In this document: one piece after another, positions 33,186-60,564 of the stretch | Numbering within the stretch: the stretch's first letter is position 1 | Layout: each line of letters opens with the position of its first letter | Source: Candidatus Limnocylindria bacterium | GTDB taxonomy: Bacteria > Chloroflexota > Limnocylindria > P2-11E | Length of the DNA stretch: 64,000 nt | Assembly: GCA_035651155.1 (NCBI GenBank) | Contig: DASRGG010000027.1 | Location: 36,182 to 100,181, forward strand | Direction: 5' to 3' | Made by a program: the position numbers and the translations under genes | The notes under the pieces: generated by a model | Seen by the model: the letters and a program-made list of their open reading frames with translations, nothing else | The model's database searches: none | What the model was told of the DNA's origin: nothing

Positions 33186-33255
33186 TGTTAACTCAGTTTG
33201 AACGCCCGGCGCACCCACGGGGTGTCGGCGGCGTGTAGGACGCGGCCGCCGCGGA

Positions 33256-33281
33256 ACGCGTATCATCACCCGTACGCGTAT
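33256..33281. promoter_or_regulatory. Direct repeat of ACGCGTAT (each copy contains the palindrome ACGCGT) in the divergent control region
   Basis: The copies are at 33256-33263 and 33274-33281. The second abuts and overlaps the iclR-like ATG (33280). TATCAT at 33261-33266 is -10-like. Confidence 0.3.
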
Positions 33282-33957
33282 GACCGACAGTACGGGAGCC
33301 CTCCGGCCCGTTCCCGCGATCGACAAGGCCGCGCGCGTGCTGCGCGCGCTCGCCGAGGGCGGCCGGCCCCAGGGCATCAGCGAGCTCGCACGCGCGCTCA
33401 ACGTGTCGAAGGGGACCCTGCGCGACGTCCTCCTGACGCTCGACGCCTACGGCTTCGTCGTGCGCGATCCGGATACGCGGTTCCGTCTCGGGCCCGAGCT
33501 GCGGACGCTCGCGGACGCGAGCACCCCGGACCTGCGGACGCTGGCGCAGCCGTACCTCGTCTCGCTCATGGAGTCGTTCGGCGAGACCGCGATCCTCGGC
33601 GTGGTGCACGACGGAAAGCTCGAGATCGCGGCGCGCGCGGAGCCGGCGACCGATCTGCACATGACCGCGCCTCTCGGGCGCCGCCTTCCGCTGGAGGAGG
33701 GCGCGCACGGCAAGGTGATCACGAAGGGCGTGGCCGTCGGCTACGACGACGAGGAGCTGTTCGCGGGCGTCCGCGCGGCGGCCGCTCCGATCGTCGATTC
33801 CCGCGGCCGGAAAGTGGCGTTCGTCATGGTCGTCGGCTTCAAGCAGCGGGTCGATCTGCGCACGCTCCGCAGGATCGGCGAGCGCTGCGCGAGCGCGGCG
33901 GACGCCATCTCGCGGCGCATCGGCGCGAAGGGCTCAGACGAGAACGTCAGCGCATGA
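33280..33957 (+). CDS. IclR-family transcriptional regulator
   Basis: The N-terminal wHTH is AIDKAARVLRALAEGGRPQGISELARALNVSKGTLRDVLLTL, followed by an IclR effector domain. The stop overlaps the next ATG (ATGA). Confidence 0.85.
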   Translation: MTDSTGALRPVPAIDKAARVLRALAEGGRPQGISELARALNVSKGTLRDVLLTLDAYGFVVRDPDTRFRLGPELRTLADASTPDLRTLAQPYLVSLMESFGETAILGVVHDGKLEIAARAEPATDLHMTAPLGRRLPLEEGAHGKVITKGVAVGYDDEELFAGVRAAAAPIVDSRGRKVAFVMVVGFKQRVDLRTLRRIGERCASAADAISRRIGAKGSDENVSA

Positions 33958-34421
33958 CGAAGCAGCTGCTCACCCTGCGCGTGAATGGCGAGGTGCAGCG
34001 GGTCGCGGCAGAGCCGCATCACACGCTGCTGGAGGTGCTGCGCGAGGAGCTCGATCTCACCGGGACGAAACACGGCTGCGAGCTGGGCGAGTGCGGCGCG
34101 TGCACCGTGCTCGTCGACGGCGTACCGATGCTCTCCTGCCTCACGCTCCCGCTCGAGGTCGAGGACGCCGAGATCACCACGGTCGAGGGCCTGGCGAACG
34201 GTCCCGAGCTGCACCCGCTCCAGCGCGCTTTCGCGGAGGAGGGCGCCGCGCAGTGCGGCTACTGCACGCCCGGCATGCTCATGAGCGCGAAGGCGCTGCT
34301 CGACACGACGCCGCGACCGACGCGCGAGCAGATCGCGAGCGCGATCAGCGGGAACCTCTGCCGCTGCACCGGCTACACCGCGATCTACGAGGCGGTGGAG
34401 AAGGCGGCGCGCGATGTCTGA
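33954..34421 (+). CDS. Xanthine-dehydrogenase-family small subunit, 2x[2Fe-2S] (locus A)
   Basis: GTKHGCELGECGACTVLVDG...SCLT and QCGYCTPGMLMS...GNLCRCTGY. Confidence 0.9.
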   Translation: MTKQLLTLRVNGEVQRVAAEPHHTLLEVLREELDLTGTKHGCELGECGACTVLVDGVPMLSCLTLPLEVEDAEITTVEGLANGPELHPLQRAFAEEGAAQCGYCTPGMLMSAKALLDTTPRPTREQIASAISGNLCRCTGYTAIYEAVEKAARDV

Positions 34422-36819
34422 GCTCGCCATCCTCGGGCGGCGCCTGCCGAAGGTGAACGCTTGGGCGCACCTCACCGGCGGCGCGCGCTACGCCGACGAC
34501 ATCCAGCTGCCGCGCATGCTGTACGGACGGCTGCTGCGCTCCACGCGGCCGCACGCGCGCCTCACGCGCATCGACACCTCGCGCGCGCTCGCGCATCCCG
34601 GCGTGGTCGCCGTGGTCACCGGCGCGGACATGCCCGAGAAGATGGGCATCATGCCGTCGACGCAGGACGAGACCGCGCTCGCGGTGGGCAAGGTCCGCTA
34701 CGTCGGCGAGCCCGTCGCGGCGGTCGCCGCGCTCGACGAGGACACCGCGTTCGAGGCGCTCTCGCTCATCGACGTCGAGTACGAGGACCTCGAGCCGATC
34801 TTCACCATCGAAGAGGCGCTCGAGCGCGAGGACGTGAAGATCCACGACGAGGCCAAGCGCGCGAACGTGTTCAAGGAGGTGCACCTTTCGTTCGGCGATC
34901 TCGAGGCGGGCTTCGCGGCCGCGGATCACGTGCGGGAGGACTGGTTCTTCTTCGAGGGGAACACGCACGCGCCGATCGAGTCGCACGCCTGCGTGGCCTC
35001 GTACGACGCCGACGGGAAGCTGACGCTCTGGTCGAGCACGCAGGTGCCGCACTACCTGCACCGAGAGATGGAGAAGGTGCTGGGCCTGCCGCGCTCGCGC
35101 ATCCGGGTGATCGCCACGCCCAGCGGCGGCGCGTTCGGCGGCAAGAGCGATCCCTTCGGCCACGAGTTCTCCGCCGCGCTCCTCTCCATGCGGACGAAGC
35201 GGCCGGTGAAGATCACGCTCGACCGGGAGGAGGTCTTCTACGCGCACCGCGGCCGTCACCCCGTGAAGATGCGCATCAAGACCGGCGTCAAGAAGGACGG
35301 CGAGATCACCGCGGTCGAGTTCAGCTCGTACCTCGACGGCGGGGCGTACGCGTCGTACGGCATCGCCACCACCTACTACACCGGCGCGCTCCTCACGGTC
35401 ACGTACCGCGTGCCCGCCTACAAGTTCGACGGTATCCGCGTGTACACGAACAAGCCGCCCTGCGGGCCGAAGCGCGGCCACGGCACGACGCAGCCACGCT
35501 TCGCCTTCGAGTGCCAGCTCGACAAGATCGCCGCGGACCTCGGCTTCGATCCGATCGCGTACCGCCTGCGCATCCTGCAGCCCCCGCAGAGCCGCACCGT
35601 CAACGAGCTCCGCGTGACGACGATGGGCCTCGGGGAATGTCTTGCCGCGGTGCGCGACGCGACCGGCTGGGAGCGCAAGAAGGGACAGCTGCCGAAGGGC
35701 AAGGGCATCGGCGTGGCGGGAAGCGCGTACATCTCCGGCGCCGGCCTGCCGATCTACTGGAACGAGATGCCGCATTCCGGCGCGGAGATCCGCATCGACC
35801 GCGGCGGCGGCGTCACCGTGATGTGCGGCACGAGCGAGATCGGACAGGGCTCGGACAACATGCTCGCGGCGGTCACGGCGGAGACGCTCGGCATCTTCCC
35901 CGAGGACGTGCACGTCGTGTCCGGCGACACGAGCCTCGCGCCGGTCGACCTCGGCTCCTATTCGAGCCGGGTCACGATGATGGCGGGCAACGCGACGAAG
36001 AACGCGGGCCAGAAGCTGCGCGCGATGCTCTTCGAGGTCGCCTCCGAGAAGCTCGGCGTGCCGAAGGAGCGTCTCTCCGCGGCCTTCCGTCGCGTGTACG
36101 ACCTGCAGGATCCGGAGAAGCACCTGTCCTTCGTCGAGGCCGCCAATCTCGCCGAGGCGAGGTACGGGACGCTCGTGGCGGCGGGCTCGTACCGCCCGCC
36201 GGCCGGTATCGGCGGCGGCTACAAGGGAGCCGGCGTGGGCCCGACGCCCGCGTACTCCTATCAGGCCGCCGTCGCCGAGGTCACGGTGGACCTCGAGACG
36301 GGGCAGCTCACCGTCGACAAGATCACGAGCGCGCACGACTGCGGCCGCGCGCTCAACCCGACGAACGTGGAGGGCCAGATCGAAGGGTCCGCGTACATGG
36401 GCTACGGCGAGATCGCCGTCGAGGAGCAGGTCTTCCGCGGCGGCCTGCACAAGAAGCCGAGCCTGCTCGACTACAAGCTGCCGACGAGCCTCGACACGCC
36501 CGCGCTCGAAGCGATCCTCGTCGAGACGATCGACAGCGAAGGACCCTTCGGCGCGAAGGAGGCGGGCGAAGGCCCGCTCAATCCGGTGATCCCGGCGATC
36601 GCGAACGCGGTGTACGACGCGATCGGCGTGCGCTTCGACGAGACGCCGATCACCGCCGAGAAGATCCTCGACGCGCTGGGGAAGCGCGACAACCGCGGCG
36701 TGCCGAAGGACCGCATCGGCCCGACGGGCCTCACGAGCGGCAAGGGCGATCCGAAGCGCGCCGTGCGCCGGCTCACGGCGTCCACCGAGGAGCGCGAGCG
36801 CAGGCGGAGCGCGACCTGA
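34414..36819 (+). CDS. Xanthine-dehydrogenase-family molybdopterin-binding large subunit (locus A)
   Basis: An 801-aa protein with N-terminus GRRLPKVNAWAHLTGGARYADD and a C-terminus GAKEAGEGPLNPVIPAIANAV typical of the family. It overlaps the small subunit gene by 8 nt. Confidence 0.9.
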   Translation: MSELAILGRRLPKVNAWAHLTGGARYADDIQLPRMLYGRLLRSTRPHARLTRIDTSRALAHPGVVAVVTGADMPEKMGIMPSTQDETALAVGKVRYVGEPVAAVAALDEDTAFEALSLIDVEYEDLEPIFTIEEALEREDVKIHDEAKRANVFKEVHLSFGDLEAGFAAADHVREDWFFFEGNTHAPIESHACVASYDADGKLTLWSSTQVPHYLHREMEKVLGLPRSRIRVIATPSGGAFGGKSDPFGHEFSAALLSMRTKRPVKITLDREEVFYAHRGRHPVKMRIKTGVKKDGEITAVEFSSYLDGGAYASYGIATTYYTGALLTVTYRVPAYKFDGIRVYTNKPPCGPKRGHGTTQPRFAFECQLDKIAADLGFDPIAYRLRILQPPQSRTVNELRVTTMGLGECLAAVRDATGWERKKGQLPKGKGIGVAGSAYISGAGLPIYWNEMPHSGAEIRIDRGGGVTVMCGTSEIGQGSDNMLAAVTAETLGIFPEDVHVVSGDTSLAPVDLGSYSSRVTMMAGNATKNAGQKLRAMLFEVASEKLGVPKERLSAAFRRVYDLQDPEKHLSFVEAANLAEARYGTLVAAGSYRPPAGIGGGYKGAGVGPTPAYSYQAAVAEVTVDLETGQLTVDKITSAHDCGRALNPTNVEGQIEGSAYMGYGEIAVEEQVFRGGLHKKPSLLDYKLPTSLDTPALEAILVETIDSEGPFGAKEAGEGPLNPVIPAIANAVYDAIGVRFDETPITAEKILDALGKRDNRGVPKDRIGPTGLTSGKGDPKRAVRRLTASTEERERRRSAT

Positions 36820-37823
36820 TGCTTCGCCTGCCGCGCTTCCGCTACGTCTCGCCCCCGACGCTCGAGGAGGCCATCCGTCTGCGCACCGAGCACGCCGACT
36901 CCTCGATGTACGTCGCCGGAGGGACCGACGTGTACCCGAAGATGAAGCGGCGCCAATTCCAGCCCGAGGTCGTCATCTCGCTCGGACGTGTCGTGAGTGA
37001 CGGCTTCGCGGACGGCACGGGCACCTCGTTCGCCGAACAGGGTCCCCTCCCCCCGGGGCTCCGCATCGGCGCGAACGCGTCGCTCACCGCGGTGAGCGAG
37101 CACCCGAAGGTGCGCGAGGGATACGCCGCGCTCGCGCAGGCGGCGTCGCTCATCTCGACGCCGCAGCTTCGCAACATGGGGACGATCGGCGGCAACATCT
37201 GCCTCGACACGCGCTGCAACTGGTACGACCAGTCGCTCTTCTGGCGCACCGCCGAAGGCTTCTGCATGAAGACGAACGCCGAGGTCGTCTGTCGCGTCGC
37301 CCCGTCGAGCCCGCGCTGCCTCGCGGTCGCGAGCGCCGACACCGTTCCCGCGCTCATCGCGCTCGGCGCGTCGGTGCACGTGGCCGGACCGAGCGGGGAG
37401 CGCGTCGTGGAGCTGGCCGAGTGCTACCGCGATGACGGCATCCGCTACCTGACGCTCGCACCCGGTGAGGTCGTCACCGAGGTGCGGCTGCCGCCGAGGG
37501 ACGGGTGGAAGAGCACCTATCTGAAGCTCCGCGACCGCGGCTCGTTCGACTTCCCGATCGCCGGTCTCGCCGCCGCGGTCCGGTGGGACGGCGCGAAGGT
37601 CGCCGAGGCGCGGGTCGCCATCACGGCGCTCGCCTCGCGTCCGGTCGCGGTCGACGCGAGCGCGCTCGTGGGCACCGCCCTCGAGGACGACGCGATCGCC
37701 GTGGTCGCGGACGCGGTACACAAGGCGGCGCGTCCGATGGACAACACCTCGGGAACGATCAGCCAGCGGAAGCGCGCGTCCCGCGTGTTCGCCGAGCGCG
37801 CCCTTCGTTCGCTGCGCACATGA
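36819..37823 (+). CDS. FAD-binding medium subunit with 4-Cys insertion (locus A)
   Basis: YVAGGTDVYPKMK...QLRNMGTIGGNICLDTRCNWYDQSLFWRTAEGFCMKTNAEVVCRVAPSSPRCLAVASAD. The start overlaps the upstream stop by 1 nt (TGATG). Confidence 0.9.
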   Translation: MLRLPRFRYVSPPTLEEAIRLRTEHADSSMYVAGGTDVYPKMKRRQFQPEVVISLGRVVSDGFADGTGTSFAEQGPLPPGLRIGANASLTAVSEHPKVREGYAALAQAASLISTPQLRNMGTIGGNICLDTRCNWYDQSLFWRTAEGFCMKTNAEVVCRVAPSSPRCLAVASADTVPALIALGASVHVAGPSGERVVELAECYRDDGIRYLTLAPGEVVTEVRLPPRDGWKSTYLKLRDRGSFDFPIAGLAAAVRWDGAKVAEARVAITALASRPVAVDASALVGTALEDDAIAVVADAVHKAARPMDNTSGTISQRKRASRVFAERALRSLRT

Positions 37824-38476
37824 GCCTGAGTCGAGCGACGAGCGGCTCACCCGCGAGGAGCGAGTCCGGAAGCGAGCCGCCCTTCCGAGCCGTCGCGGTC
37901 GTCACGGCCGCGGGTTCGGCGGAGCGCTTCGGCGGCCGGAAGCTGCTCGCCAGGGTGGACGGCGAGCCGCTCCTCGATCGGACGATCCGCGCGCTCCTCG
38001 ACGGCGGAGCGAGCGAGGTGGTCGTCGTCGTGGGGGCGGATTCCCGGTGGGAGCTCGAGCGCGACGTGAACGCGATGAACGACGCCCGCGTGCGCTCGGT
38101 CGAGAATCGGGATCCGTCCCGCGGCATGTTCTCGTCGATCCAGGAAGGCGTCGCGACCGCGAGCGGCGACGCGCTGCTCGTGATGCCCGGCGACATGCCC
38201 TTCGTCCGAGGGGACACGGTACGGGCGGTCATCGCGAAGTACCGGGAGCGCCCGGCCATCGTGTCGCCCCGGTATCGAGGCAAGCGCGGGCACCCGGTCG
38301 CGCTGCCGCCCGTTCTCAGGGACGAGATCGTGGCCACGCCCACGAGCGCCACGTTGCACGACGTCATCAAGCGCCATGTGGACATGCGGGTGGATCTGGA
38401 CGTCGACGACGCGGGCGTTGTTCGCGATGTGGACACCCCGGCTGACCTCGTTGACGGCGGCAAATCGGGAGGCTAA
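37820..38476 (+). CDS. mocA: MobA-like NTP transferase (molybdenum cofactor cytidylyltransferase-like)
   Basis: ATGA overlap with the upstream gene. AVVTAAGSAERFGGRKLLARVDGEPLL...LLVMPGDMPFV. Confidence 0.75.
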   Translation: MSLSRATSGSPARSESGSEPPFRAVAVVTAAGSAERFGGRKLLARVDGEPLLDRTIRALLDGGASEVVVVVGADSRWELERDVNAMNDARVRSVENRDPSRGMFSSIQEGVATASGDALLVMPGDMPFVRGDTVRAVIAKYRERPAIVSPRYRGKRGHPVALPPVLRDEIVATPTSATLHDVIKRHVDMRVDLDVDDAGVVRDVDTPADLVDGGKSGG

Positions 38477-38526
38477 CGTCCGCCCGGGGACCTACAGCCA
38501 AACGCTGCAAAGGTGGGACGACACCC

Positions 38527-39312
38527 GTGAGCGAAGGCACCGGCGAACAGGCGGCACCCGACACTCCGGAGGTCTCCCGCCGGAGCTTGCTCAAGGCGGG
38601 CGTTCCCATCGTCGCCTTCATCGCGCTCGAGGCCATCGGCGGCATCGGCGCGACGAACGGCCCGGCGCCGGGGAAGGTCAAGAACGCCGAGGGCGTGGTC
38701 TTTCCCGATCCGACGCTCTGCATCGGCTGCCTGACATGCGAGGTGATCTGCTCGCAGGAGCACGAGCGGCACGGCCTCTCGAACGTGCCGCGGATCCGCA
38801 TCTTCAACGACCCGACGACGAAGGTGGACCCGGTGATCCAGGCGGCCTACCCCGACCGCGGCCGGTTCCACCAGGAGCCGTGCCTCCAGTGCCCGACCGC
38901 CGAATGCCTCTACGTCTGCCCGGTCGACGCGCTCAAGGTCGAGCCGCGGACCGGCGCGCGGTACATCGACGAGGATCGCTGCGTCACGTGCGGGCGCTGC
39001 AACGAGGCGTGCATCTTCCCGACGAGCGATCTCGCGGAGGCGACCAACCGCGGTGATTCCCCGCCGCAGACGTCGCGCATCACGTACGACCCGGTCCGCG
39101 ACACGTTCGCGAAGTGCGACCTCTGCTTCTGGCGGGACGGCGGTCCGGCGTGCGTCGAGCGCTGCCCGATCAACATCCGCATCCGTCAGGGGATCATCAA
39201 GACCGACGCCGGCCGCATGTGCCTCTCGCTGCCGGCGTCCGACAAGCCGACCTGGGACAAGCTCCGCGCGTTCCAGACGTTCGACGGCAGCCCCGCGGCG
39301 GGCAAGGCCTAG
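38527..39312 (+). CDS. Tat-signal 4x[4Fe-4S] ferredoxin-type subunit (DmsB/FdnH/NrfC-like)
   Basis: The twin-arginine motif is SRRSLLKAG. The four Cys groups are CIGCLTCEVIC, CLQCPTAECLYVCP, CVTCGRCNEAC and CDLCFWRDGGPACVERCP. Confidence 0.85.
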   Translation: MSEGTGEQAAPDTPEVSRRSLLKAGVPIVAFIALEAIGGIGATNGPAPGKVKNAEGVVFPDPTLCIGCLTCEVICSQEHERHGLSNVPRIRIFNDPTTKVDPVIQAAYPDRGRFHQEPCLQCPTAECLYVCPVDALKVEPRTGARYIDEDRCVTCGRCNEACIFPTSDLAEATNRGDSPPQTSRITYDPVRDTFAKCDLCFWRDGGPACVERCPINIRIRQGIIKTDAGRMCLSLPASDKPTWDKLRAFQTFDGSPAAGKA

Positions 39313-40224
39313 ATGAACGGTCGTATCGGTCTCGCGATCGCGGTCGTCCTCACCGGCGTCTCCGCGTTCCTCATCCAGGTCATCGCGTCGCAGGCCGGGA
39401 CCGCGCAGCCGTGGGGCAACGAGCTGAGCGACGACTTCGTCTTCGTGCGCGCGCTCCCCATCGTGCTCGGCCTCGGCGTCGCGTACGGGCTCGTCGGCGG
39501 ATGGGCCCGCTCGACGGGCCGGCCGGCCCGCCGCGGCGATGGCGCGATCCGGCGCTTCTCCGGCACCACGATCGCCCTGCACGCGCTGCTCGCGGTGGGT
39601 TTTCTCCTCGCGCTGCCCACCGGACTCTGGCAGTACCTCGGCGGCATCCTCGACGCTCCGGGCCCGCTGCCGGTCTACCTCTACTACCGCATCCACTACG
39701 TCGGGGCCGCGATCATCCTCGTGGCGGTCACGGGCTTCGTCACGTACTGGTGGATGACGGGGGATCGCTCGCTCCTCATCCCGCGGGGGGACTGGGGTCG
39801 CCATCTGCGCGGCTTCGCGCTCGAGATCCCGCGCCCGCTCGGCACGCGTCTCGCACGCATCCTGAAGCTCGACCTCCGCCGGCCCGCCGGATCGTCGGGC
39901 GCGTTCACCTTCTACGAGAAGGTGTTCTCCTTCCCCACCTGGGGATTCGCGATCGGTCTCATCACCATCACGGGGCTCGTGAAGCTGCTGCGCTACGCGG
40001 TCCCCATCCCGGGCACGATCATCTTCGTCGACTCGACCCTTCACGTGACCGCGATGGTCATCCTCGTCATCCGCACGCTCGACCATCTGCGGTACACGCT
40101 CGGGCGCTGGCCGCTCGTGGTCGCGATCGCCACGGGCTGGCTTCCGCCACGCCGCGGTCACGCCGCGGGCGCGGCCGCTGATGTCGCCGAGGCCGAGCGC
40201 TCGGCGACGGGGGCCGGATCGTGA
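39313..40224 (+). CDS. Integral membrane cytochrome b-like subunit (FdnI / b561-like)
   Basis: The start immediately follows the upstream stop (TAGATG). The protein has about 5 TMs with His residues inside helices (TIALHALL, YYRIHYVG, STLHVTAMV..LDHL). Confidence 0.6.
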   Translation: MNGRIGLAIAVVLTGVSAFLIQVIASQAGTAQPWGNELSDDFVFVRALPIVLGLGVAYGLVGGWARSTGRPARRGDGAIRRFSGTTIALHALLAVGFLLALPTGLWQYLGGILDAPGPLPVYLYYRIHYVGAAIILVAVTGFVTYWWMTGDRSLLIPRGDWGRHLRGFALEIPRPLGTRLARILKLDLRRPAGSSGAFTFYEKVFSFPTWGFAIGLITITGLVKLLRYAVPIPGTIIFVDSTLHVTAMVILVIRTLDHLRYTLGRWPLVVAIATGWLPPRRGHAAGAAADVAEAERSATGAGS

Positions 40225-40448
40225 AGCGGCTCGTGGCCGTGCTGGGCCTGCTCTGGGCCGCCGCGAACCTCGTCGTAACGTACTGGATGGTGACCGGGGC
40301 CTTCATGGCGACCACGGCCCGGAAAGAGGGCCTGGTGGCCCAGGTATCGCTCCTGCTTGGTGGTCTCCTCGTTGGAGCGTTCGCCGTCGGCCTCGGCCGG
40401 CTCTGCCTGCGGATCCTCGCCGCGCCCGACGAGGCGTCCGGCGCGTGA
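40221..40448 (+). CDS. Small two-TM membrane protein (75 aa)
   Basis: GTGA overlap with the cytochrome b gene. MKRLVAVLGLLWAAANLVVTYWMV...LLLGGLLVGAFAVGLG. Confidence 0.45.
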   Translation: MKRLVAVLGLLWAAANLVVTYWMVTGAFMATTARKEGLVAQVSLLLGGLLVGAFAVGLGRLCLRILAAPDEASGA

Positions 40449-40458
40449 GGTGACGCCG

Positions 40459-41586
40459 ATGCGCGCGTTCCGCGTCGTCTCGCTGTTCCTTCTCATCGGC
40501 TCGCTGAGCGTCAACGTCACCGCGGCCTCCTCTCCGATCCGCCAGCTCACCGCGACGGAGGGCTCGAACCTCCGGCCGACCTGGAGCCCGGACGGCAAGC
40601 GCATCGCGTATCAGAGCAATCGCGACGGCAGCTACCACATCTACGTGATGGACGCGGACGGCTCGAACACCAAGCAGATCACGAGCGGCGCGGACACCGA
40701 CGACCGTCACCCCGCGTGGAGTCCCGACGGCCGCGCCATCGCGGTCGATTCCGGCGACGCGACGCACCGCGAGATCTGGATCATCGACGTGGCGTCGCAG
40801 CGGCGCACGCAGGTGACGAAGACCGGCGCGATCGCGAGCTTCCCGAGCTGGAGCCCCGACGGAAAGCGCCTGGCCTTCTACGTCTATCGCGCGAGCGGCG
40901 CCACGTCGGGTGAGTTCAGCGGGACGATGGACGTGTGGACCGCCGCGCGCGACGGCAGCGGCCTGGTCCAGATGACGCGGGGCCTCGCCTCGGAGAAGAA
41001 CAGCCAGTGCACGTTCGCGTGCCACTCCGTCCGCTGGTCGCCGGACAGCACGCGCATCGCGTTCTCGGATGGCGACCTGTCCCGCGTCCTCGTGATGTCC
41101 GCGGTGGCGACCGGCGGCGCGGCGCCCGAGGCGATCACGCCCGACGGCGAGCGCAGCCACTTCCCGGTGTTCCTCTCCAGCGGCCAGCTGCTGTACGTGA
41201 CGGAGCACCTTTCCCTCGATCAGAGCTGGACGGATCTCTGGCGCCAGGACCCGACCTCCACCGCGCAGCGCGATCAGATCGCGCAGGGCATCCTCGCGCA
41301 GGGTCCCTTCGAGTTCTCGGCCGACGGATCGGAGCTGCTCTTCGCCTCACCGCGCAGCGGCAATTTCGAGATCTACGCGGTCACGCTGGATGACGCGGGC
41401 AAGGCCGCGCTCGCGACGAACCCGAACGCGGTGGCCGCGGTGAGGGCGCCGGCGAACACGTCCGCGGCGCTCAAGATCCCCGGCATGTCGCCCGAGGCGT
41501 ACATCCTGCTCGCGATCGCGCTCTTCGCCCTCGTCGGCGAGATCTCGCTGCGCGTCGTGCGCCGCAGGCGCCGGCTGCGCGGCTAG
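40459..41586 (+). CDS. TolB-like beta-propeller (PD40 repeats) with signal peptide and C-terminal TM/Arg-rich tail
   Basis: The signal peptide is MRAFRVVSLFLLIGSLSVNVTA. Repeats of the form PTWSPDGKRIAYQS, PAWSPDGRAIA and PSWSPDGKRLAF follow. The tail is SPEAYILLAIALFALVGEISLRVVRRRRRLRG. Confidence 0.8.
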   Translation: MRAFRVVSLFLLIGSLSVNVTAASSPIRQLTATEGSNLRPTWSPDGKRIAYQSNRDGSYHIYVMDADGSNTKQITSGADTDDRHPAWSPDGRAIAVDSGDATHREIWIIDVASQRRTQVTKTGAIASFPSWSPDGKRLAFYVYRASGATSGEFSGTMDVWTAARDGSGLVQMTRGLASEKNSQCTFACHSVRWSPDSTRIAFSDGDLSRVLVMSAVATGGAAPEAITPDGERSHFPVFLSSGQLLYVTEHLSLDQSWTDLWRQDPTSTAQRDQIAQGILAQGPFEFSADGSELLFASPRSGNFEIYAVTLDDAGKAALATNPNAVAAVRAPANTSAALKIPGMSPEAYILLAIALFALVGEISLRVVRRRRRLRG

Positions 41587-41903
41587 CCCTGCTCGGGCGT
41601 CCCCGGCTCGCGACCTCCGCGTAGCAGATCGCGCCGCGTCAGCGGCGCGCGGCGCTCCTGCTCCTTGCGCTCCTGCTCGGCGAGCCACGCCGCGCGCTTG
41701 GGCGAGCTCGCGGCGGGGTCGCCCTGCGGCGCGCTGGGCTCGGCCGCGGGCGGCGGCGCCATCGCCGCGAGGTCGGCGCGCAGCGACGCGAGCTCGTCGA
41801 GGATGAGGCCGAGCTCGGTCGCGTGAAGCTCCTTGAACGCGCGGATCTGCTGCTCGAGCCGCGCGACGCGCGTCTCGAGCGTCTTGCGTGTCGATTCCTC
41901 CAT
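41583..41903 (-). CDS. Hypothetical coiled-coil protein
   Basis: MEESTRKTLETRVARLEQQIRAFKELHATELGLILDELASLRADL is followed by a Pro/Ala-rich tail. The start overlaps the upstream stop by 1 nt (TGATG). Confidence 0.5.
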   Translation of the reverse strand: MEESTRKTLETRVARLEQQIRAFKELHATELGLILDELASLRADLAAMAPPPAAEPSAPQGDPAASSPKRAAWLAEQERKEQERRAPLTRRDLLRGGREPGTPEQG

Positions 41904-42283
41904 CAGAGGATCTCCATTCCGCGGTGCGTGACGATCCTCGGCGCGTTCGGATCGGCGCGCTCAGCGCCGACCGGGTCGCCGCGCTCGATCTCGCGCAGCA
42001 GCTGCTCCGCGGCGGCGCCGGCGGTCTGGCGTGTGGTCACGACGAGCAGCGCGTCGCCCTCGAGCCGCTCCGCGCGCTCCCGGAGCGCCGGGGACACGAC
42101 GAGGACGTCGTAGCTCTCGGGGAGTGATTCGATCGGCTCCAGGCGCACGCGGATCGCCCAGCCGGCCTTCTTCACCGCGTGCTCGAAGCGCCGGAAGACC
42201 TGGAGGTCGTCCGCGGGGAGCTCGTCGCGGGAAAAGGCGCACACGATCGTCCGCACGACGCGGACCGGCCGCTCCGGCGTCAC
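41903..42283 (-). CDS. Hypothetical protein (126 aa)
   Basis: GC3 is high and the gene is coupled to the downstream coiled-coil gene. I make no confident family assignment. Confidence 0.5.
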   Translation of the reverse strand: MTPERPVRVVRTIVCAFSRDELPADDLQVFRRFEHAVKKAGWAIRVRLEPIESLPESYDVLVVSPALRERAERLEGDALLVVTTRQTAGAAAEQLLREIERGDPVGAERADPNAPRIVTHRGMEIL

Positions 42284-42324
42284 CGTTGACCGCCCATGGG
42301 CGCAACACTACCGTCCGAGCAGCC

Positions 42325-43161: not shown

Positions 43162-43261
43162 GCCGGCCCGATCGCCGCGCTCCGTGAGCCGCCGGCGGCG
43201 TACGCGAGCGAGAGGAGTGCGCCCCGCTCTCCGGCCGCGGTCGCGGCTGCGGACGCGTGGA

Positions 43262-43287
43262 AAGGGGGCGGCTCTCGCCGCCCCCTT
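43262..43287. terminator. Strong hairpin between convergent genes (likely terminator of the minus-strand Mo-hydroxylase operon)
   Basis: aagggggcggc-tctc-gccgccccctt forms a perfect 11-bp stem with a 4-nt loop. On the minus strand it is followed by TTTCC. Confidence 0.6.
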
Positions 43288-43310
43288 CAGACCTCTGGAC
43301 GACGTGCGGG

Positions 43311-44318
43311 CTAGTTGGTGCCGCCGCTCATCGCGTCGATGAGGGTGCGCTCGATGAGGCCCTGGACCAGGTCGACCTTGTACGCGTTCAGGCTCATCGG
43401 ACGGGCGACGGTGCGGATCTGCGCCGCCGCGGCCTTCGCCGCGGCCTTGACGTCCTTGCCCTTGAGCGCGTCCTCGACGACCTTCGCGCGGTACGGGACG
43501 GGCGACACGCCGCCGAGGGCGATGCGGCCGTCCTTCCAGTTGCCACCGTCGAGCGTGAACGAGACCGCGACCGAGGTGAGCGCGAAGTCGTAGACCTGGC
43601 GGTCCTTGAGCTTCGTCCACGCCCACTTCGTCCCCGCCGCGGGCGACGGGATGGTGATGTGGGTCATGAACTCGCCCGGCTTCAGGATGTTCTCGCGGAG
43701 CACGTCCACGCGCGGGCCGGTGAAGTATTCGTCGAACGACACGGTCTTGTCGCCGTTGACGCCGGTGATCTTCGCCGAGGCGTTCATCGCCAGCAGCGCG
43801 GTCGCCGTGTCGGACGGGTGGACGATGTAGCAGAGCTCGCCGCCGATGATCGCGTGGTAGCGGTTGTCACCGGTGACCGCGTAGCAGAAGTCGCCACCCT
43901 TCTTGTAGCAGTTGAAGTCCTCGCCGCGGAAGAACCAGCAGCGCGGACGCTGGTTGATGTTCCCGCCGATCGTGCCGAAGTTCCGGATGAGCGGTGAGGC
44001 GACGCTCGCGGCCGCCTGCCCGAGCAGTCCGAACTTCTCCTGTACGGTCTTGTGGTTGATGACATCCGTCAGCGTCGTGGCCGCGCCGATGGTGAGCCCG
44101 CCGCCGTCCTCGCCGATGCCGACGAGCTCCTTGATCGTCGTGATGTCCACGAGCACGTCCGGGATCGCGAGGCCCTTGCCGTGGACCCAGTCCTTCATGA
44201 GGCCGCCGATGAGATCGCTCCCACCGGCGACCACCCTCGCCGACTTTGACGAGTTCGCCTTCAGGAGGTCTACGGCTTCTTTGATGGTCGTCGCGTCGTA
44301 GAGCTCGAATGCTCTCAT
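43311..44318 (-). CDS. FAD-binding medium subunit with 4-Cys insertion (locus B)
   Basis: VVAGGSDLIGGLMKD...IRNFGTIGGNINQRPRCWFFRGEDFNCYKKGGDFCYAVTGDNRYHAIIGGELCYIVHPSD. GAAGGAGGG lies upstream of the ATG. Confidence 0.9.
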   Translation of the reverse strand: MRAFELYDATTIKEAVDLLKANSSKSARVVAGGSDLIGGLMKDWVHGKGLAIPDVLVDITTIKELVGIGEDGGGLTIGAATTLTDVINHKTVQEKFGLLGQAAASVASPLIRNFGTIGGNINQRPRCWFFRGEDFNCYKKGGDFCYAVTGDNRYHAIIGGELCYIVHPSDTATALLAMNASAKITGVNGDKTVSFDEYFTGPRVDVLRENILKPGEFMTHITIPSPAAGTKWAWTKLKDRQVYDFALTSVAVSFTLDGGNWKDGRIALGGVSPVPYRAKVVEDALKGKDVKAAAKAAAAQIRTVARPMSLNAYKVDLVQGLIERTLIDAMSGGTN

Positions 44319-44333
44319 CTCATATCCCTCCTT

Positions 44334-46808
44334 CTAGCTGCCCTTCAGCGCGGCGAGGAGCTTGTCGCGGGTGAGCGGCATGTCCGTCACCCACGCGCCG
44401 ACCGCGTTGTAGACCGCGTTCACGATCGCCGGAGCGCCGGGAGCCATGGGCGGCTCGCCGATGCCGTGCGCGCCGAAGACGCCGTACTCCTTGGGCTTCT
44501 CGATGAGGAGGACGTCCGCGAGCGGCGCGTCCTTGATCGAGAGCGGGCGGTAGTCGAGGAGGTTCGGGTTGAGCGGCAGGCCCGTGGCCTTGTCGACCAA
44601 CAGCTCCTCGGTGAAGACGGCGCCGGTCGCCATGACCACGCCGCCTTCGATCTGCTGCTTGAGCGCGAATGGGTTGAGCGCGCGGCCGACGTCGTGTGCC
44701 GCGACGTACTTCGTGATCTTGACCGTTCCCGTCACGGTGTCGACCTCGACCTCGACCGCGTGCGCGGCCCAGGCCGTGCGCTGCCACTTCGGGTCCTGAA
44801 CGTACTCGGCGACGCCGACGATCGGACGGCCGCCGCGGAACGCCATGACGTCCGCGAGCTTGACCTTCTGCGCCGTGTTCGCCTTCGGGAACACCAGGCC
44901 GTCGACCATGTCGACGTCGGCCGCGGTGTAGCTGGTCTCCTGGCCCTTCTTCTTGTTGTCGTCGTTCAGCTTGCGGGCGCCCCACTCCAGGACCTTCTTC
45001 TTCGCGTCCTGGCCGGCCTCGAACTGGCCGCGGCCGCCGGTGTTCGTCTGCTGGCTACCGAACGTGCCGCTGGCGTCGGTGGTGAGCTCGGTGTCCACGT
45101 ACGGGGTCGTCGTGACCGACGTGAGCGGGACGCCGAGCGATTCGGCCGCGATCATCATCATGAGGGTCCGCTGGCCGTCGCCGATGTCGTTCGACGCCGA
45201 GACGACCTGGACGGTGCCGTCGCCGTTGATGATCACCTGACCGCTGGCGGGGTTGCCGCCCGCGCCGTGGCTGCAGGCGTGGGCCGCGAGGCCGACGCCG
45301 TGGTAGACGCCGGGACGGACCTGCTTCGCCTTCGGGGCGTGCCAGGTGGACTTCCAGTTGATGCCGTCCGCCGCGGCGGTGATGACGTCGCGGATGCCCG
45401 GGTTGCTGAAAGGCTGCTTGGTCTCCGGGTTGCCGGTCTCGTTCAGGTTCTTCAGGCGGAACTGCACCGGGTCCATGCCGATGGCGTACGCCGCCTTCTC
45501 CATCATCACCTCGAGGGCGAACGTGCCGTTCGGGTGGGAGACGCAGCGGTACGGGCCCGACTTGAAGCTGTTGGTGAAGACGTCGACGGCTTCGAGCTTC
45601 AGGTTCGGGATCTTGTACAGCATCTGCATGTTGAACCAGGAGCCGTTCGCCGCTCCGGCCCGTTGCGCGCCGACGTTGGCGATGACCTTGAACTGGCCGA
45701 AGGCGATGGAGCCGTCCTTGTTGACGCCCATCTTCATCTCGTTACGGAACTCGTTGCGGTGCGTGCGCGTGACGAAGTCCTCGTACCGCGTGTAGTTCAT
45801 CTTCACCGGACGTCCGGTCAGCTTCGACAGGATCGCGGCGTGGACCTCCATGAGGTCGATGCCGCTCCGGTAGCCGTAGCCGGAGCCGACGTAGCCCGGC
45901 TGGATCACGCGCACCTTGTTCTGCGGGATCTTGAGCGCCTGCGAGAGTCCGGCGCGCACGCCATGAGCCCACTGGCTGGTGTAGATCGCGTTCAGCTTGT
46001 CGTTGTCCCACCAGAAGAGCCCGTTCGTCATCTCGAGCGCGACGTGCTGCTCGACCGGCTTGTGCAGCGTCCCATCGACGGTCGCGTCCGCCTTGGTGTT
46101 GCTGGGGTCACCGCGAACGAGCGGGGGCGTGACCGCGATGGTGGTGCCGTCGAGGTTGCTCTGGAACTGCTTGGGCGTGGTCGACTTCATGCCCTCGAGC
46201 ATGTCGAGGACGGCCGGCAAGACCTCGTACTGCACGTCGATGAGCCGCATCGCCTCGTCGGCGATGTGCTCGCTTTCCGCCGCGATCGCGGCGATCGGCG
46301 CGCCGACCTCGAAGACCTCCTCGCTGAAGAGGAAGCGCGTCGGGTTCGCGGCGCCCAGGAAGACGTCCTTGTATTCCTCGGGGAGGGTGTCCTTGGTCAG
46401 GACCTTGTGGACCCCGGGGAACTTTTCGGCCTTCGAGATGTCGACCGACTTGATCTTCGCGTGCGGGTACTTGCTGCGCAGCGTGCGCATGAAGAGCATG
46501 CCCGCGACCTTGAGGTGCTCGCTGTACTGGCCCTGGCTCGTGACGATCCCGATGCCCTGCATGCGGGAGACGTCGGTGCCGATGACCCTGAACGGCGCCT
46601 GCACCGGGATCTCGGTGCTCGTGCTCGGAAGTCCCGCGCCGGGGAGCTTCCCACCGTGTGCGGCGAGGACGCTCGTGAGCATCTCGGGCTGTTCGGCCTG
46701 GAGCTGCTGCCACGTGGGGTCCTGCGCCAGATCGAGCCAATCGCCATCGGTCAGGGAGTCGGCGTACGACGGATCCTGGGCCGCGCGGACGGCATCTAGC
46801 TTCGCCAT
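44334..46808 (-). CDS. Molybdopterin-binding large subunit (locus B)
   Basis: An 824-aa protein with family-typical motifs and C-terminus GAHGIGEPPMAPGAPAIVNAV, plus a roughly 65-aa N-terminal extension. GGGAGGGAG lies upstream of the ATG. Confidence 0.9.
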   Translation of the reverse strand: MAKLDAVRAAQDPSYADSLTDGDWLDLAQDPTWQQLQAEQPEMLTSVLAAHGGKLPGAGLPSTSTEIPVQAPFRVIGTDVSRMQGIGIVTSQGQYSEHLKVAGMLFMRTLRSKYPHAKIKSVDISKAEKFPGVHKVLTKDTLPEEYKDVFLGAANPTRFLFSEEVFEVGAPIAAIAAESEHIADEAMRLIDVQYEVLPAVLDMLEGMKSTTPKQFQSNLDGTTIAVTPPLVRGDPSNTKADATVDGTLHKPVEQHVALEMTNGLFWWDNDKLNAIYTSQWAHGVRAGLSQALKIPQNKVRVIQPGYVGSGYGYRSGIDLMEVHAAILSKLTGRPVKMNYTRYEDFVTRTHRNEFRNEMKMGVNKDGSIAFGQFKVIANVGAQRAGAANGSWFNMQMLYKIPNLKLEAVDVFTNSFKSGPYRCVSHPNGTFALEVMMEKAAYAIGMDPVQFRLKNLNETGNPETKQPFSNPGIRDVITAAADGINWKSTWHAPKAKQVRPGVYHGVGLAAHACSHGAGGNPASGQVIINGDGTVQVVSASNDIGDGQRTLMMMIAAESLGVPLTSVTTTPYVDTELTTDASGTFGSQQTNTGGRGQFEAGQDAKKKVLEWGARKLNDDNKKKGQETSYTAADVDMVDGLVFPKANTAQKVKLADVMAFRGGRPIVGVAEYVQDPKWQRTAWAAHAVEVEVDTVTGTVKITKYVAAHDVGRALNPFALKQQIEGGVVMATGAVFTEELLVDKATGLPLNPNLLDYRPLSIKDAPLADVLLIEKPKEYGVFGAHGIGEPPMAPGAPAIVNAVYNAVGAWVTDMPLTRDKLLAALKGS

Positions 46809-46820
46809 CTTTCTCCCTCC

Positions 46821-47807
46821 CTACTTGACCGCGTGGCCGGCGCCGGACAGCAGATCGCGGACCTGCTGCTCGGTGAGCTTGGCCGGGTCCCAACGGATCG
46901 TGATCGTGCGCTCGTTGCCGGAGACGCCGAGGATGCCGTCCTTCTTCTTCATGGTCTCCGCGAAGGGATCGAACTCCTCGATCGTCGCGAACGGCGTGTT
47001 GAACGTGAATTCCTTCGACGTACCGGTGACCGCGGGTCCCGTCTGCGCCGCGGGCTTCGCGACCTCGACGACGACGGGCTTGGAGAGATAGGTCACCTTC
47101 TCGCCGGCCATCTCGGCAGCGGCCGTGTTCACCGCGCGGTAGATCTTCGAGTACTCACCGCAGCGGCAGATGTTGCCGGCGAGCCCTTCGGCGATCTGCG
47201 CCGTCGTGGGCTTGGGGGTCGCGGCCAGCAGCGCGACCGTCGACATGATGAATCCGCGCGTGCAGATGCCGCACTGGAATCCACCGTCGAGCCAGTACGC
47301 GCGCTGCACCGGGTGCAGACCCGCGACGCCGGGGCCCGTGGCGAGCCCGGCGACGGTCTGGATCTTCTGACCGCGGCCGAGTCGCGCCGAGATGATGGTG
47401 CAGCTGTTCATCGGCTTGCCGTCGACGAGCACGGCGCACGCGCCGCACTGCGCGCGGTCGCAACCGAGGTTGCTGTTGGAGAGCCCGAGCTGGAAGTTCA
47501 TCGTCTCCCAGAGGCTTTCGCGGTTGTCGACGATGAGATCGTGCTGCGCGCCGTCGATGTTCAGCGTGACGCGCCGCATCGTCGCGGGGATCGGGCCCGT
47601 GGCAGTCGTCTTCGTCGCGGATGTCTCCGGACTGACGACGTTCTTGACGACGACCGCGCCACCGAGGACGACACCGGCGGTCGCCGCACCGGCACCCGCG
47701 CCGATGAGGAAGTCGCGTCGCGTGACCGAGAAGCCGTTGCCCTTGCTGTGCGTCTGCCCTGTGTCAGCTACCGTGCCCGGATCTGGATTGCCTCCCGCTT
47801 CTCCCAT
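46821..47807 (-). CDS. Tat-signal 2x[2Fe-2S] small subunit with about 93-aa C-terminal extension (locus B)
   Basis: The ATG at 47807 is followed by the twin-arginine motif VTRRDFLIGAGAGA. The cluster motifs are CDRAQCGACAVLVDG, QCGICTRGFIMS and GNICRCGEY. The extension ends ...RTITIRWDPAKLTEQQVRDLLSGAGHAVK. Confidence 0.85.
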   Translation of the reverse strand: MGEAGGNPDPGTVADTGQTHSKGNGFSVTRRDFLIGAGAGAATAGVVLGGAVVVKNVVSPETSATKTTATGPIPATMRRVTLNIDGAQHDLIVDNRESLWETMNFQLGLSNSNLGCDRAQCGACAVLVDGKPMNSCTIISARLGRGQKIQTVAGLATGPGVAGLHPVQRAYWLDGGFQCGICTRGFIMSTVALLAATPKPTTAQIAEGLAGNICRCGEYSKIYRAVNTAAAEMAGEKVTYLSKPVVVEVAKPAAQTGPAVTGTSKEFTFNTPFATIEEFDPFAETMKKKDGILGVSGNERTITIRWDPAKLTEQQVRDLLSGAGHAVK

Positions 47808-47890
47808 AGAGGAACACCCCCATGCCCATCGCTCTGGTCGATGGCAACGACAGACTAGCAGCGGGGTAAAGGGAAGTGCCCTCGTGTGGT

Positions 47891-47903
47891 GTGGTCTGAC
47901 CAC
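47891..47903. promoter_or_regulatory. 13-bp palindrome GTGGTC-T-GACCAC in the divergent intergenic region
   Basis: It has perfect 6-bp arms and lies in the 262-nt gap between the Tat small subunit start (47807, -) and the XdhC-like start (48070, +). Confidence 0.25.
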
Positions 47904-48069
47904 CCCGGAAATGCTCGGGATCGGGGGGAACCGGCCGAGCGCCGGACTGGCCGGGACGCCGCCGGATGAAGCGGACCTGAGAGGGCGGTGCGGCCTGATC
48001 CGGTATCACGAGGAGAAACAGGTCTGCGATACACGGCGGTTTCGGGGCCTGATCGGCGGTCTATCCTCG

Positions 48070-49185
48070 ATGCGGATGCGTGAGATCTACGCGCGGATGG
48101 CCGAGCTCGAGCGCGAGGGGCGCCGTTTCGCGGTGTGCACGGTCGTCCGGACGGTGGGCAGCACCCCCCAGGTCGTCGGCGCGAAGCTCCTGGTCGACGA
48201 CCTCGGTCGCCTGACCGGCACGCTCGGCGGCGGATGCGTCGAGGGCGACGCCTTCGTCGAGGCGAAGCGGGTCCTCGCGACCGGCGACGCGTCGCTGCGC
48301 GAATACGAGCTCACCGAGGACCTCGCCTGGGACACCGGCCTCGTCTGCGGCGGCACGATGTGGATTGCCATCGAGCCCGGCGACCGCGCGCTGCGCCTCG
48401 CCGGCCGCGATCTCCTCGGCGACGTCCTCGCGGCGTCGTCGGGCGGCCGCCCGGTCGCGCTCGCGACGCTCCTGCGGAAGACCGACCGCGACTTCGCCCC
48501 CGAGGCGAAGCTGTTCGTCGAGACCGACGGCGCGGCGCACGGCTCGCTCGGCGACGCGGCGGTCGACGCGCGCGCGCTCTCGGCCGCGGAGGAGGCGCTC
48601 CGCCAGGGCACGGCACGGACGATCGCGCTCGACGAACGGCACGAGCTGCTCATCGAGCCCATCGTGGCCAAGCCGCGCCTGGTCATCGCCGGCGGCGGTC
48701 ACGTCGGCCTCGCGATCGCGAAGATGGCGACGCTCCTCGAGTACGAGGTGACCGTGATCGACGATCGCGAGGAGTACGCCGCGCGCGAACGGTTCGGACC
48801 GGGCGTCGACGTCGTCCGGATGGATATGGTCGAGGCGCTCCGCTCGCTGCCGATGGGCTGGAACAGCTTCCTCGTGATCGCGACGCGCGGCCACAAGCTC
48901 GACTCGCACTGCCTCCGCGAGGCCGTGAAGCGCGACGTCCGCTACGTCGGTTTGCTCGGCAGCAAGCGCAAGACGGTGCTCATCGCGAAGATGCTGCGCG
49001 ACGAGGGCGTCCCCGAAGAGCGCATCCGGCGGGTGCACGCGCCGATCGGCCTCGACCTCGGCGGACGCACGCCGGCGGAGATCGCGCTCAGCGTGCTCTC
49101 CGAGATGAGCCTCGAGCGGTACGGCGGCTCGGGTCAGCCGCTCCGGCTTCGCGACGAGATCTACGAGCGTGCCGCGCGGCGGTAG
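48070..49185 (+). CDS. XdhC/CoxI-family molybdoenzyme maturation factor
   Basis: FAVCTVVRTVGSTPQVVGAKLLV...GTLGGGCVEGD...CGGTMWIAIEP...LVIAGGGHVGLAIAKMA...HAPIGLDLGGRTPAEIALSVLSE. Confidence 0.85.
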   Translation: MRMREIYARMAELEREGRRFAVCTVVRTVGSTPQVVGAKLLVDDLGRLTGTLGGGCVEGDAFVEAKRVLATGDASLREYELTEDLAWDTGLVCGGTMWIAIEPGDRALRLAGRDLLGDVLAASSGGRPVALATLLRKTDRDFAPEAKLFVETDGAAHGSLGDAAVDARALSAAEEALRQGTARTIALDERHELLIEPIVAKPRLVIAGGGHVGLAIAKMATLLEYEVTVIDDREEYAARERFGPGVDVVRMDMVEALRSLPMGWNSFLVIATRGHKLDSHCLREAVKRDVRYVGLLGSKRKTVLIAKMLRDEGVPEERIRRVHAPIGLDLGGRTPAEIALSVLSEMSLERYGGSGQPLRLRDEIYERAARR

Positions 49186-56573: not shown

Positions 56574-56644
56574 TCGGTCGATTCTGCTCCGGACGCTTCG
56601 TCGCTACCGTGGGCCTTCACGACGAGGCTCCCGGGAGGGGCCCG

Positions 56645-59990: not shown

Positions 59991-59991
59991 C

Positions 59992-60492: not shown

Positions 60493-60564
60493 CGTATCGA
60501 GCGGGCGCGCCGGGCGTCCGTCCGCGGAAGGCCCGGCACCCCCGGCCGCGTTGTGGGCGATGGG

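Follow-up and report, generated by a model that had tools for sequence, protein, structure and literature searches.

A membrane FeS/cytochrome b module packed behind an HCR-like trio in Limnocylindria probably serves a neighbouring exported molybdenum hydroxylase

Introduction

Molybdenum hydroxylases of the xanthine oxidase (XO) family are usually regarded as soluble, with NAD+, O2, ferredoxin or a cytochrome c as redox partner. In a 64-kb window of contig DASRGG010000027.1 from Candidatus Limnocylindria bacterium (the window is the whole stretch of DNA that was analysed, with a G+C content of ∼71%, and all coordinates are positions in it), genes of this family are packed with genes of a membrane electron-transfer module. 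Nine open reading frames (ORFs) at 33280-41586 run in the same direction, show the expected codon-position GC pattern and have boundaries that translate cleanly. In order, they encode an IclR-family regulator, the small (S), large (L) and medium (M) subunits of an XO-family enzyme, a MocA-like protein, an iron-sulfur (FeS) protein with a twin-arginine translocation (Tat) signal, a cytochrome b, a 75-amino-acid (75-aa) membrane protein and a PD40 propeller protein. A preliminary description of the locus, which miscounted the genes as ten, treated them as a single unit in which a xanthine dehydrogenase (XDH)-family enzyme is wired to a module resembling FdnH and FdnI of formate dehydrogenase N. 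It also noted that a cytoplasmic-looking trio would then face an exported FeS partner. The question raised by this locus is which enzyme the membrane module serves.

Here we report that the nine-gene chain is a composite of two functional units lying side by side. Unit A (33280-38476) consists of the IclR regulator, a cytoplasmic S/L/M trio of the 4-hydroxybenzoyl-CoA reductase (HCR)-like type and MocA, and unit B (38527-41586) consists of the Tat-signal FeS protein, an FdnI-like cytochrome b, the 75-aa membrane protein and an anchored propeller. From an analysis of gene content, motifs, fold, synteny and co-occurrence we propose, with a probability of roughly 0.7, that unit B is the membrane electron-transfer arm of a second, exported trio of the PaoABC type encoded nearby (43311-47807, minus strand), and that it passes electrons to quinone.

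Results

Co-occurrence of the FeS gene with exported trios

We scanned GTDB species genomes with an alignment of the FeS protein and mapped all window proteins onto the recovered loci. This FeS-centred scan returned 72 loci from Limnocylindria, Anaerolineae, Dehalococcoidia, Ardenticatenaceae and Caldilineaceae, together with a few bins labelled otherwise. The cytochrome b gene follows the FeS gene wherever about 1 kb or more of downstream sequence exists. Full flanks, meaning about 8 kb or more on both sides of the FeS gene, are available for 22 loci, and in every one of these a Mo-hydroxylase trio that is not of the HCR type lies within 10 kb of the FeS gene, with a Tat motif on its small subunit and a four-Cys insertion in its FAD subunit. 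Just 4 of the 22 also carry an HCR-like trio; the other 18 have the FeS/cytochrome b pair without one. In Anaerolineae, Dehalococcoidia, Ardenticatenaceae and Caldilineaceae the genes are arranged as S-L-M-(propeller)-FeS-(propeller)-cytochrome b on one strand, and in many loci the FeS gene comes directly after the FAD-subunit gene. The large subunits adjoining the module fall into at least six clades with identities of 45% or less; identity within the tight HCR-like clade averages 86%. On this genomic pattern, unit B appears to behave as a generic acceptor for exported trios.

Several tandem sets of exported S-L-M genes with FeS, propeller and cytochrome b genes lie within ∼45 kb of a single 10.4-Mb Ardenticatenaceae contig (loci L055 and L057). 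Their divergent large subunits suggest a paralogous battery of such enzymes.

The survey was also run in reverse, with metagenome contigs being searched for the HCR-like large subunit. In 14 of the 22 loci with close orthologues (identity of at least 78%) the FeS gene lies downstream; the other eight have XdhC or unrelated genes after MocA. None of the 14 relatives below 78% identity, each with at least 2.5 kb of room, has the FeS gene nearby, and on one contig the HCR-like trio is placed beyond the exported trio. Conversely, five loci of the FeS-centred scan (L021, L024, L028, L038 and L042) lack both MocA and an HCR-like trio in the sequence ahead of the FeS gene; the full 10 kb of upstream sequence is available for L024, L028 and L042. 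The check proposed in the preliminary description, whether the FeS/cytochrome b pair co-occurs with the clade of the adjacent trio, thus came out negative.

These counts bear directly on the reading in which the inner S/L/M trio (33954-37823) is wired to the FeS protein and cytochrome b, for example because it hitch-hikes on export or because the FeS protein is not exported, and in which all nine genes form one IclR-controlled operon. The co-directional genes, tight packing and translational overlaps are what such an operon would show, generic scans detect neither a terminator nor a sigma-70 consensus promoter in the gap between the units, and HCR-type enzymes need an FeS electron donor acting through the [4Fe-4S] loop, which the inner FAD subunit has. 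That 14 of the 22 close orthologues retain the FeS gene downstream also agrees with it. However, in the 22 full-flank loci the pair is always accompanied by a Tat-signal trio and lacks an inner-type trio in 18, distant HCR-like relatives do not have the pair, the junction between the units is variable and carries a conserved promoter-like motif, and the three inner subunits bear no signal whereas the neighbouring trio has one. We therefore consider this reading very improbable.

A second alternative is that unit B is an independent extracytoplasmic redox module for other or several enzymes, its position reflecting inherited synteny or shared maturation genes (MocA, XdhC). The evidence is all genomic, one locus (L015) has units A and B with no exported trio within 10 kb downstream, and the gene island also holds unit A and a third type of XO-family locus, all of which would fit such a module. 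Against this, the association of trio and FeS gene spans classes in which the FeS protein is only 47-55% identical, it has survived repeated rearrangement of gene order and strand, and it extends over the six or more large-subunit clades. The frequent position of the FeS gene immediately behind the FAD-subunit gene also speaks against independence, as does the finding that no other candidate catalytic partner is conserved near the module. An independent module is in our estimate unlikely, and we favor unit B as the arm of exported trios.

The exported trio

The window contains two further XO-family loci that the preliminary description overlooked. The exported trio at 43311-47807 is encoded on the minus strand 1.7 kb past the end of unit B at 41586 and is convergent with it.

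The small 2x[2Fe-2S] subunit (46821..47807, minus strand) carries the Tat motif TRRDFLIGAG... and its best NCBIfam match is PaoA. Its N-terminus, MGEAG...TRRDFLIGAGAGAATAGVVLGGAVVV, comprises the twin-arginine motif, a long hydrophobic stretch and a Thr/Pro linker, and the PaoA model aligns to it from model residue 8, signal region included. At the other end, an extra C-terminal domain of ∼95 aa (46821-47100) has no Pfam match. In Anaerolineae-type loci a similar ∼95-aa domain is a separate ORF (L049:7085-7273, L051:6445-6624, L054:360-545, L060:3867-4046, L061:9648-9899 and L062:8486-8683). In L054 the domain is preceded by a lipoprotein-like signal, and in most other copies by a linker rich in Pro, Thr and Ala.

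The large subunit, which binds the molybdenum cofactor (Moco; 44334..46808, minus strand), matches XO-family models, all far under their equivalog cut-offs, and its best PDB match, HcrA, is weak (225 bits). It belongs to a clade of 27 sequences, all of which adjoin FeS genes. The FAD subunit (43311..44318, minus strand) finds its best PDB matches in chain B of 5Y6Q and in PaoB (5G5G_B); its residues Cys127, 137, 145 and 163 align with the four insertion Cys of both structures. Orthologues of this subunit encoded beside an FeS gene have four to five Cys in the insertion segment. When the trio was compared with the PaoABC equivalog models, PaoA scored 138.5 bits against a cut-off of 322 and PaoC 289.2 bits against 1180. 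Judged from its sequence, the trio has a PaoABC-type architecture but is not a PaoABC orthologue.

Divergent from the trio lies a gene for an XdhC/CoxI-family Moco insertion chaperone (48070..49185, plus strand; XdhC_CoxI and XdhC_C), a position that is kept in relatives. The region 44001-48000 has a G+C of 0.665-0.670 versus ∼0.71 around it and a strongly negative AT skew (-0.13 to -0.22).

Components of unit B

The first gene of unit B (38527..39312, plus strand) encodes a Tat-signal, 4x[4Fe-4S] ferredoxin-like protein with the motif SRRSLLK. An invariant SRRxLL motif, including an invariant RR, precedes 16 invariant Cys arranged in four CxxCxxCxxxC-type groups (65/68/71/75, 119/122/127/131, 152/155/158/162 and 197/200/209/213). 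The protein has 585 homologues, and its profile matches are to HycB, to the FeS subunit of the tungsten AOR and to FdnH. The N-terminal hydrophobic segment (h-region) is conserved as well, which suggests an uncleaved Tat signal-anchor; the protein is probably signal-anchored.

The cytochrome b (39313..40224, plus strand) has six transmembrane helices and is probably a di-haem protein. Its match to Pfam PF01292 is weak (21.9 bits, under the 30.1 cut-off), the same family is recorded for relatives, and sequence search does not connect its family to FdnI. This is a narrow family: a library of 1.84 billion proteins yielded 71 representatives. The AlphaFold model (mean predicted local distance difference test score, pLDDT, 87.7) shows the six helices, and a Foldseek search with it returned FdnI (1KQF_C) as the only meaningful PDB match (probability 1.00, TM-score 0.63). 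Four His residues (His90, His128, His244 and His258) are conserved. His244 and His258 lie on one helix, 14 residues apart, and in helix 4 of FdnI two haem ligands are likewise 14 residues apart. The Arg-rich loops at 66-83 and 150-199 are the positive-inside loops, and in the model so oriented the predicted positions of His90 and His258 are close to the cytoplasmic face, those of His128 and His244 close to the outer one. With the four His placed in this way, the model is consistent with a pair of haems that span the membrane.

The 75-aa protein (40221..40448, plus strand) has two transmembrane helices and is conserved downstream of the cytochrome b, of which it is probably a subunit. In two members of the cytochrome b family (P0124 and P0126) two extra helices at the C-terminus resemble the separate 75-aa protein, which makes these members natural fusions.

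Set against FdnH and FdnI, the beta and gamma subunits of a complex iron-sulfur molybdoenzyme (CISM), unit B has the four Cys groups on a subunit predicted to lie outside the membrane, and, as gamma subunit, a predicted di-haem cytochrome b in which one helix supplies two of the four axial His. What differs is the alpha partner. As the preliminary description had stated, no protein of the bis(molybdopterin guanine dinucleotide) (bis-MGD) type (Molybdopterin, PF00384-type) is encoded in the window, as judged by Pfam on all long ORFs; the conserved neighbour is an XO-family trio.

The last gene of the chain (40459..41586, plus strand) encodes a TolB-like beta-propeller with PD40 repeats, a Sec signal and a C-terminal transmembrane helix that ends in an Arg-rich tail and would anchor it in the membrane. 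At residues 183-189 the propeller has a CX3CH loop, invariant as (N/Q)CTFACH in ∼60 orthologues of 35-77% identity and QCTFACH in this protein. AlphaFold models this loop with less confidence than any other part of the protein (pLDDT below 50). A CXXXCH motif can bind haem c covalently, as in MmcA (PMC11024163), and the propeller loop may be a variant haem c site. The anchored propeller is an obligatory partner that may be a scaffold or, via this loop, a haem carrier. Its likeness to TolB of the Tol-Pal system is confined to the propeller: TolB is the top structural match and such matches cover the propeller only, and TIGR02800 scores 120.6 bits against a cut-off of 343.15. The N-terminal TolA-binding alpha/beta domain of TolB is missing, no tol or pal genes neighbour the propeller gene, and the window protein has a C-terminal transmembrane anchor.

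Unit A encodes an HCR-like trio

The trio of unit A is of the 4-hydroxybenzoyl-CoA reductase type by sequence and is not a generic XDH; HCR is the best family for both the large and the FAD subunit. The Moco large subunit (34414..36819, plus strand; Ald_Xan_dh_C, MoCoBD_1 and MoCoBD_2) scores 884 bits with TIGR03194, the HCR alpha model, versus 535 bits for the next family, and 632 bits with 1RM6_A versus 269 for the next PDB entry. The FAD medium subunit (36819..37823, plus strand; FAD_binding_5 and CO_deh_flav_C) scores 295.7 bits with TIGR03195 versus 136 for the next family. Its alignment to 1RM6_B is continuous through the inserted loop, and its Cys133, 149, 158 and 167 correspond to HcrB Cys122, 138, 146 and 155, so that all four [4Fe-4S] ligands of the HcrB-type insertion are conserved. 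The small 2x[2Fe-2S] subunit (33954..34421, plus strand; Fer2 and Fer2_2) matches TIGR03193, the HCR gamma model, at 179.7 bits, with several XO-family models within a few bits of it. Because all three scores fall below the equivalog cut-offs (994.55, 404.55 and 257.8 bits, respectively) and genes of the benzoyl-CoA pathway were not seen, we use the label HCR-like only. Specifically, no CoA ligase, benzoyl-CoA reductase or ferredoxin of that pathway was present among the window ORFs inspected or scanned, and the neighbours of the trio are a response regulator, a CMD-family protein and the IclR regulator. No Tat or Sec signal was found in the translations of the three subunits, in agreement with the preliminary description, and the small subunit starts MTKQLL without any N-terminal extension.

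The IclR-family regulator (33280..33957, plus strand; HTH_IclR and IclR_C), the stop codon of which overlaps the start of the small-subunit gene, is always found ahead of the HCR-like trio in relatives. The MocA-like molybdenum cofactor cytidylyltransferase (37820..38476, plus strand; NTP_transf_3, TIGR03310 with an E value of 2.4e-37) goes with unit A in Limnocylindria, as it is absent along with the trio in the five loci named above. In some Anaerolineae loci MocA sits after the cytochrome b gene, and we considered whether it is an ancestral member of unit B; this was rejected for Limnocylindria because in this lineage MocA occurs where the HCR-like trio does and is missing where the trio is missing.

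The junction between the two units

Every junction and both gaps listed in the preliminary description were found again in the sequence, and its domain calls were borne out by Pfam and NCBIfam, with the cytochrome b resting on the weak Pfam match, the conserved His and the AlphaFold likeness to FdnI. The overlaps are ATGA at 33954 (IclR/S), 8 nt at 34414-34421 (S/L), TGATG at 36817-36821 (L/M), ATGA at 37820 (M/MocA) and GTGA at 40221 (cytochrome b/75-aa protein); FeS and cytochrome b genes abut as TAG-ATG at 39310-39315. The gaps are 10 nt between the 75-aa protein and propeller genes (40449-40458) and 50 nt between the MocA and FeS genes (38477-38526).

The last of these is the seam between units A and B, where relatives have between 11 nt and 2.2 kb separating the MocA and FeS genes. 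A conserved promoter-like motif, TTGACG-N17-TAACGT (38451..38479, plus strand), overlaps the MocA stop codon TAA (38474-38476). Upstream of the FeS gene in relatives the motif reads TTGAC(G/C)-N17-TA(A/C)C(T/G)T, with divergent spacers and, in several loci, in an intergenic position. There is one match in the 64-kb window (0.01 expected), and the exact pattern occurs once each in 19 related loci, just upstream of the FeS gene. The motif is a predicted promoter of the FeS gene and emerged from cross-locus comparison only. A generic scan of 33000-43400 found no sigma-70 consensus promoter, and it missed the motif because the -10 element is TAACGT. The corresponding terminator scan gave two chance-level terminator-like sites, both inside the cytochrome b gene, and none in the gap. 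The preliminary description had named a promoter in the 38477-38526 gap as a sign against a single unit, and the conserved, predicted promoter at this place is such a sign.

Other genes of the island

Two small genes on the minus strand follow unit B. The first (41583..41903) encodes a 106-aa coiled-coil-like protein without a Pfam match that lies beside the module in most Limnocylindria-type loci and also in some distant ones. The protein ends in ...TRRDLLRGG, an RR motif at the C-terminus, and the 3' end of the gene overlaps that of the propeller gene by 4 nt. The second (41903..42283) encodes a 126-aa protein, also without a Pfam match, that is conserved in loci including L032-L037, L041, L050, L053, L054 and L074. 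Both genes are kept beside the module across classes. Between the module and the exported trio is an inositol-monophosphatase-family gene (42334-43161, plus strand), which has the same place in Limnocylindria-type relatives.

The third XO-family locus of the window (57696-60495, minus strand) encodes large and small subunits without a signal peptide, and no clear FAD-subunit ORF was found downstream of it (56600-57690). In L024 and L040, relatives of its large subunit (74% mean identity) are encoded ∼5 kb ahead of the FeS gene.

Discussion

The preliminary description had tied an XO/XDH-family enzyme to an FdnH/FdnI-like module. The genomic tie between such an enzyme and the module holds up across the loci surveyed, whereas the inner trio does not appear to be the partner. 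The paradox of a cytoplasmic trio facing an exported FeS protein is on our reading an artefact that arose because the wrong genes were paired; it disappears when the Tat-signal trio, the conserved partner, takes the place of the inner one. The predicted topology is then coherent: Tat signals mark both the FeS protein and the small subunit of the exported trio, the propeller has a Sec signal and an anchor, and the cytochrome b is positive-inside.

With unit B as the arm of the exported trio, a route for the electrons can be proposed from family knowledge, from which we also infer the physical contacts, the direction of electron flow, the coupling to quinone and the kind of substrate. Fixed to the membrane through the small subunit, whose Tat signal-anchor would stay uncleaved, the trio would oxidize an aldehyde or a heteroaromatic compound outside the cytoplasmic membrane. 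Electrons would pass from Moco through the 2x[2Fe-2S] centers and FAD to the [4Fe-4S] cluster of the FAD subunit, and from there into the Tat-anchored ferredoxin-like protein with its four [4Fe-4S] clusters. They would then cross the membrane from the outer haem (His128/His244) to the inner haem (His90/His258) of the cytochrome b, with quinone being reduced at the cytoplasmic side in a redox loop in the style of formate dehydrogenase N.

The same partners could also work in reverse, with electrons flowing from quinol through the cytochrome b, the FeS protein and the [4Fe-4S] cluster of the FAD subunit to Moco, so that the exported trio would be a respiratory reductase, for example a reductive dehydroxylase. 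The model for such a reaction is 4-hydroxybenzoyl-CoA reductase with its inverted electron flow. Modules of the FdnI type are reversible in principle, the exported FAD subunit has the same extra-cluster loop as HcrB, and the HcrA match of the large subunit, weak as it is, points the same way. However, the redox centers of Mo-hydroxylases are far more negative than menaquinol, and HCR needs a low-potential ferredoxin, so that a quinol-driven reaction would be expected to run uphill. In addition, PaoABC and the Methylobacillus enzyme, the best matches of the FAD subunit, are oxidative. We give reverse flow only a slim chance and regard oxidation by the exported trio, with electrons passing through unit B to quinone, as the better account.

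Several observations weigh against this account. The direction of the electrons and the coupling to quinone are drawn from likeness to FdnGHI and PaoABC, and may be read otherwise. The predicted promoter escaped the generic scan. Since the FeS gene has the same orientation as unit A and starts just 50 nt behind it, transcription of unit A may also read through into unit B. In L015, as described above, units A and B stand without an exported trio in the 10 kb downstream. Close orthologues of unit A are usually located in the same gene island, by the FeS gene, XdhC or the exported small subunit, and a functional link of unit A to the island, for example through a shared pathway or maturation, is possible. 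Finally, many of the loci come from metagenome bins, a few of which are labelled with other phyla.

Taken together, the arrangement points to an undescribed way of wiring exported XO-family enzymes to the membrane quinone pool, and suggests that abundant soil and subsurface Chloroflexota may conserve energy by oxidizing aldehydes or heteroaromatics outside the cell. A wider proposal, which we put forward tentatively and consider rather unlikely, is that Chloroflexota possess an unrecognised class of outward-facing respiratory Mo-hydroxylases. Diverse Tat-exported trios would plug via the [4Fe-4S] cluster of the FAD subunit into a four-part module (signal-anchored tetra-cluster ferredoxin, FdnI-like di-haem cytochrome b, mini subunit and membrane-anchored beta-propeller), and the CX3CH motif of the propeller would bind haem c, making it a new propeller cytochrome in electron transfer. 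The locus also shows that co-directional packing can mislead, as a tight chain here unites two unrelated units.

We found no description of an XO-family enzyme with an FeS/cytochrome b module in the literature searched, a search whose coverage left subscription journals largely outside. Like the exported trio, PaoABC of Escherichia coli (5G5G/5G5H) and the periplasmic aldehyde oxidase of Methylobacillus (5Y6Q) are heterotrimeric members of the XO family. The likeness to PaoABC extends to the Tat signal on the 2x[2Fe-2S] subunit, to the four-Cys ([4Fe-4S]) insertion in the FAD subunit, and to the gene surroundings, where an XdhC-type chaperone gene is adjacent and a MocA-like gene lies within the island. 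PaoC and the exported large subunit are distant, however (185 bits), and the exported small subunit, with its apparent signal-anchor and additional C-terminal domain, differs from that of PaoABC. To our knowledge, PaoABC has no membrane FeS/cytochrome b partner. A conserved module beside PaoABC-type trios in at least five Chloroflexota lineages offers a concrete answer for the role of the extra [4Fe-4S] cluster; the terminal acceptor of PaoABC itself has been reported as unidentified (PMC3958847).

In FdnGHI (1KQF) a four-cluster ferredoxin-type subunit on the outer face is combined with a di-haem cytochrome b, and unit B is predicted to match both. The catalytic partner in FdnGHI is a bis-MGD protein, whereas that of unit B would be an XO-family Moco/FAD trio. 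Unlike FdnGHI, unit B has an FeS protein that bears its own N-terminal Tat signal-anchor, a six-helix cytochrome b of a narrow family, and the 75-aa protein and propeller in addition. For the inner trio, HcrABC of Thauera aromatica (1RM6/1SB3) is the best match of all three subunits, with the [4Fe-4S] Cys of the beta subunit kept. It differs from HcrABC in its scores below the equivalog cut-offs, in that no benzoyl-CoA genes were seen in the window, and in its host, a member of a high-GC soil lineage of Chloroflexota.

The membrane-bound aldehyde dehydrogenase of acetic acid bacteria, which depends on molybdopterin cytosine dinucleotide, is an outward-facing XO-family enzyme that feeds the respiratory quinone pool via a cytochrome c subunit (PMC9171043). 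The large subunit of this molybdoprotein-cytochrome c complex (8GY3) is very distant from the exported large subunit (72.8 bits). The two systems also differ in the link itself, which is a cytochrome c in the acetic acid bacteria and would here be a poly-[4Fe-4S] protein together with a di-haem cytochrome b.

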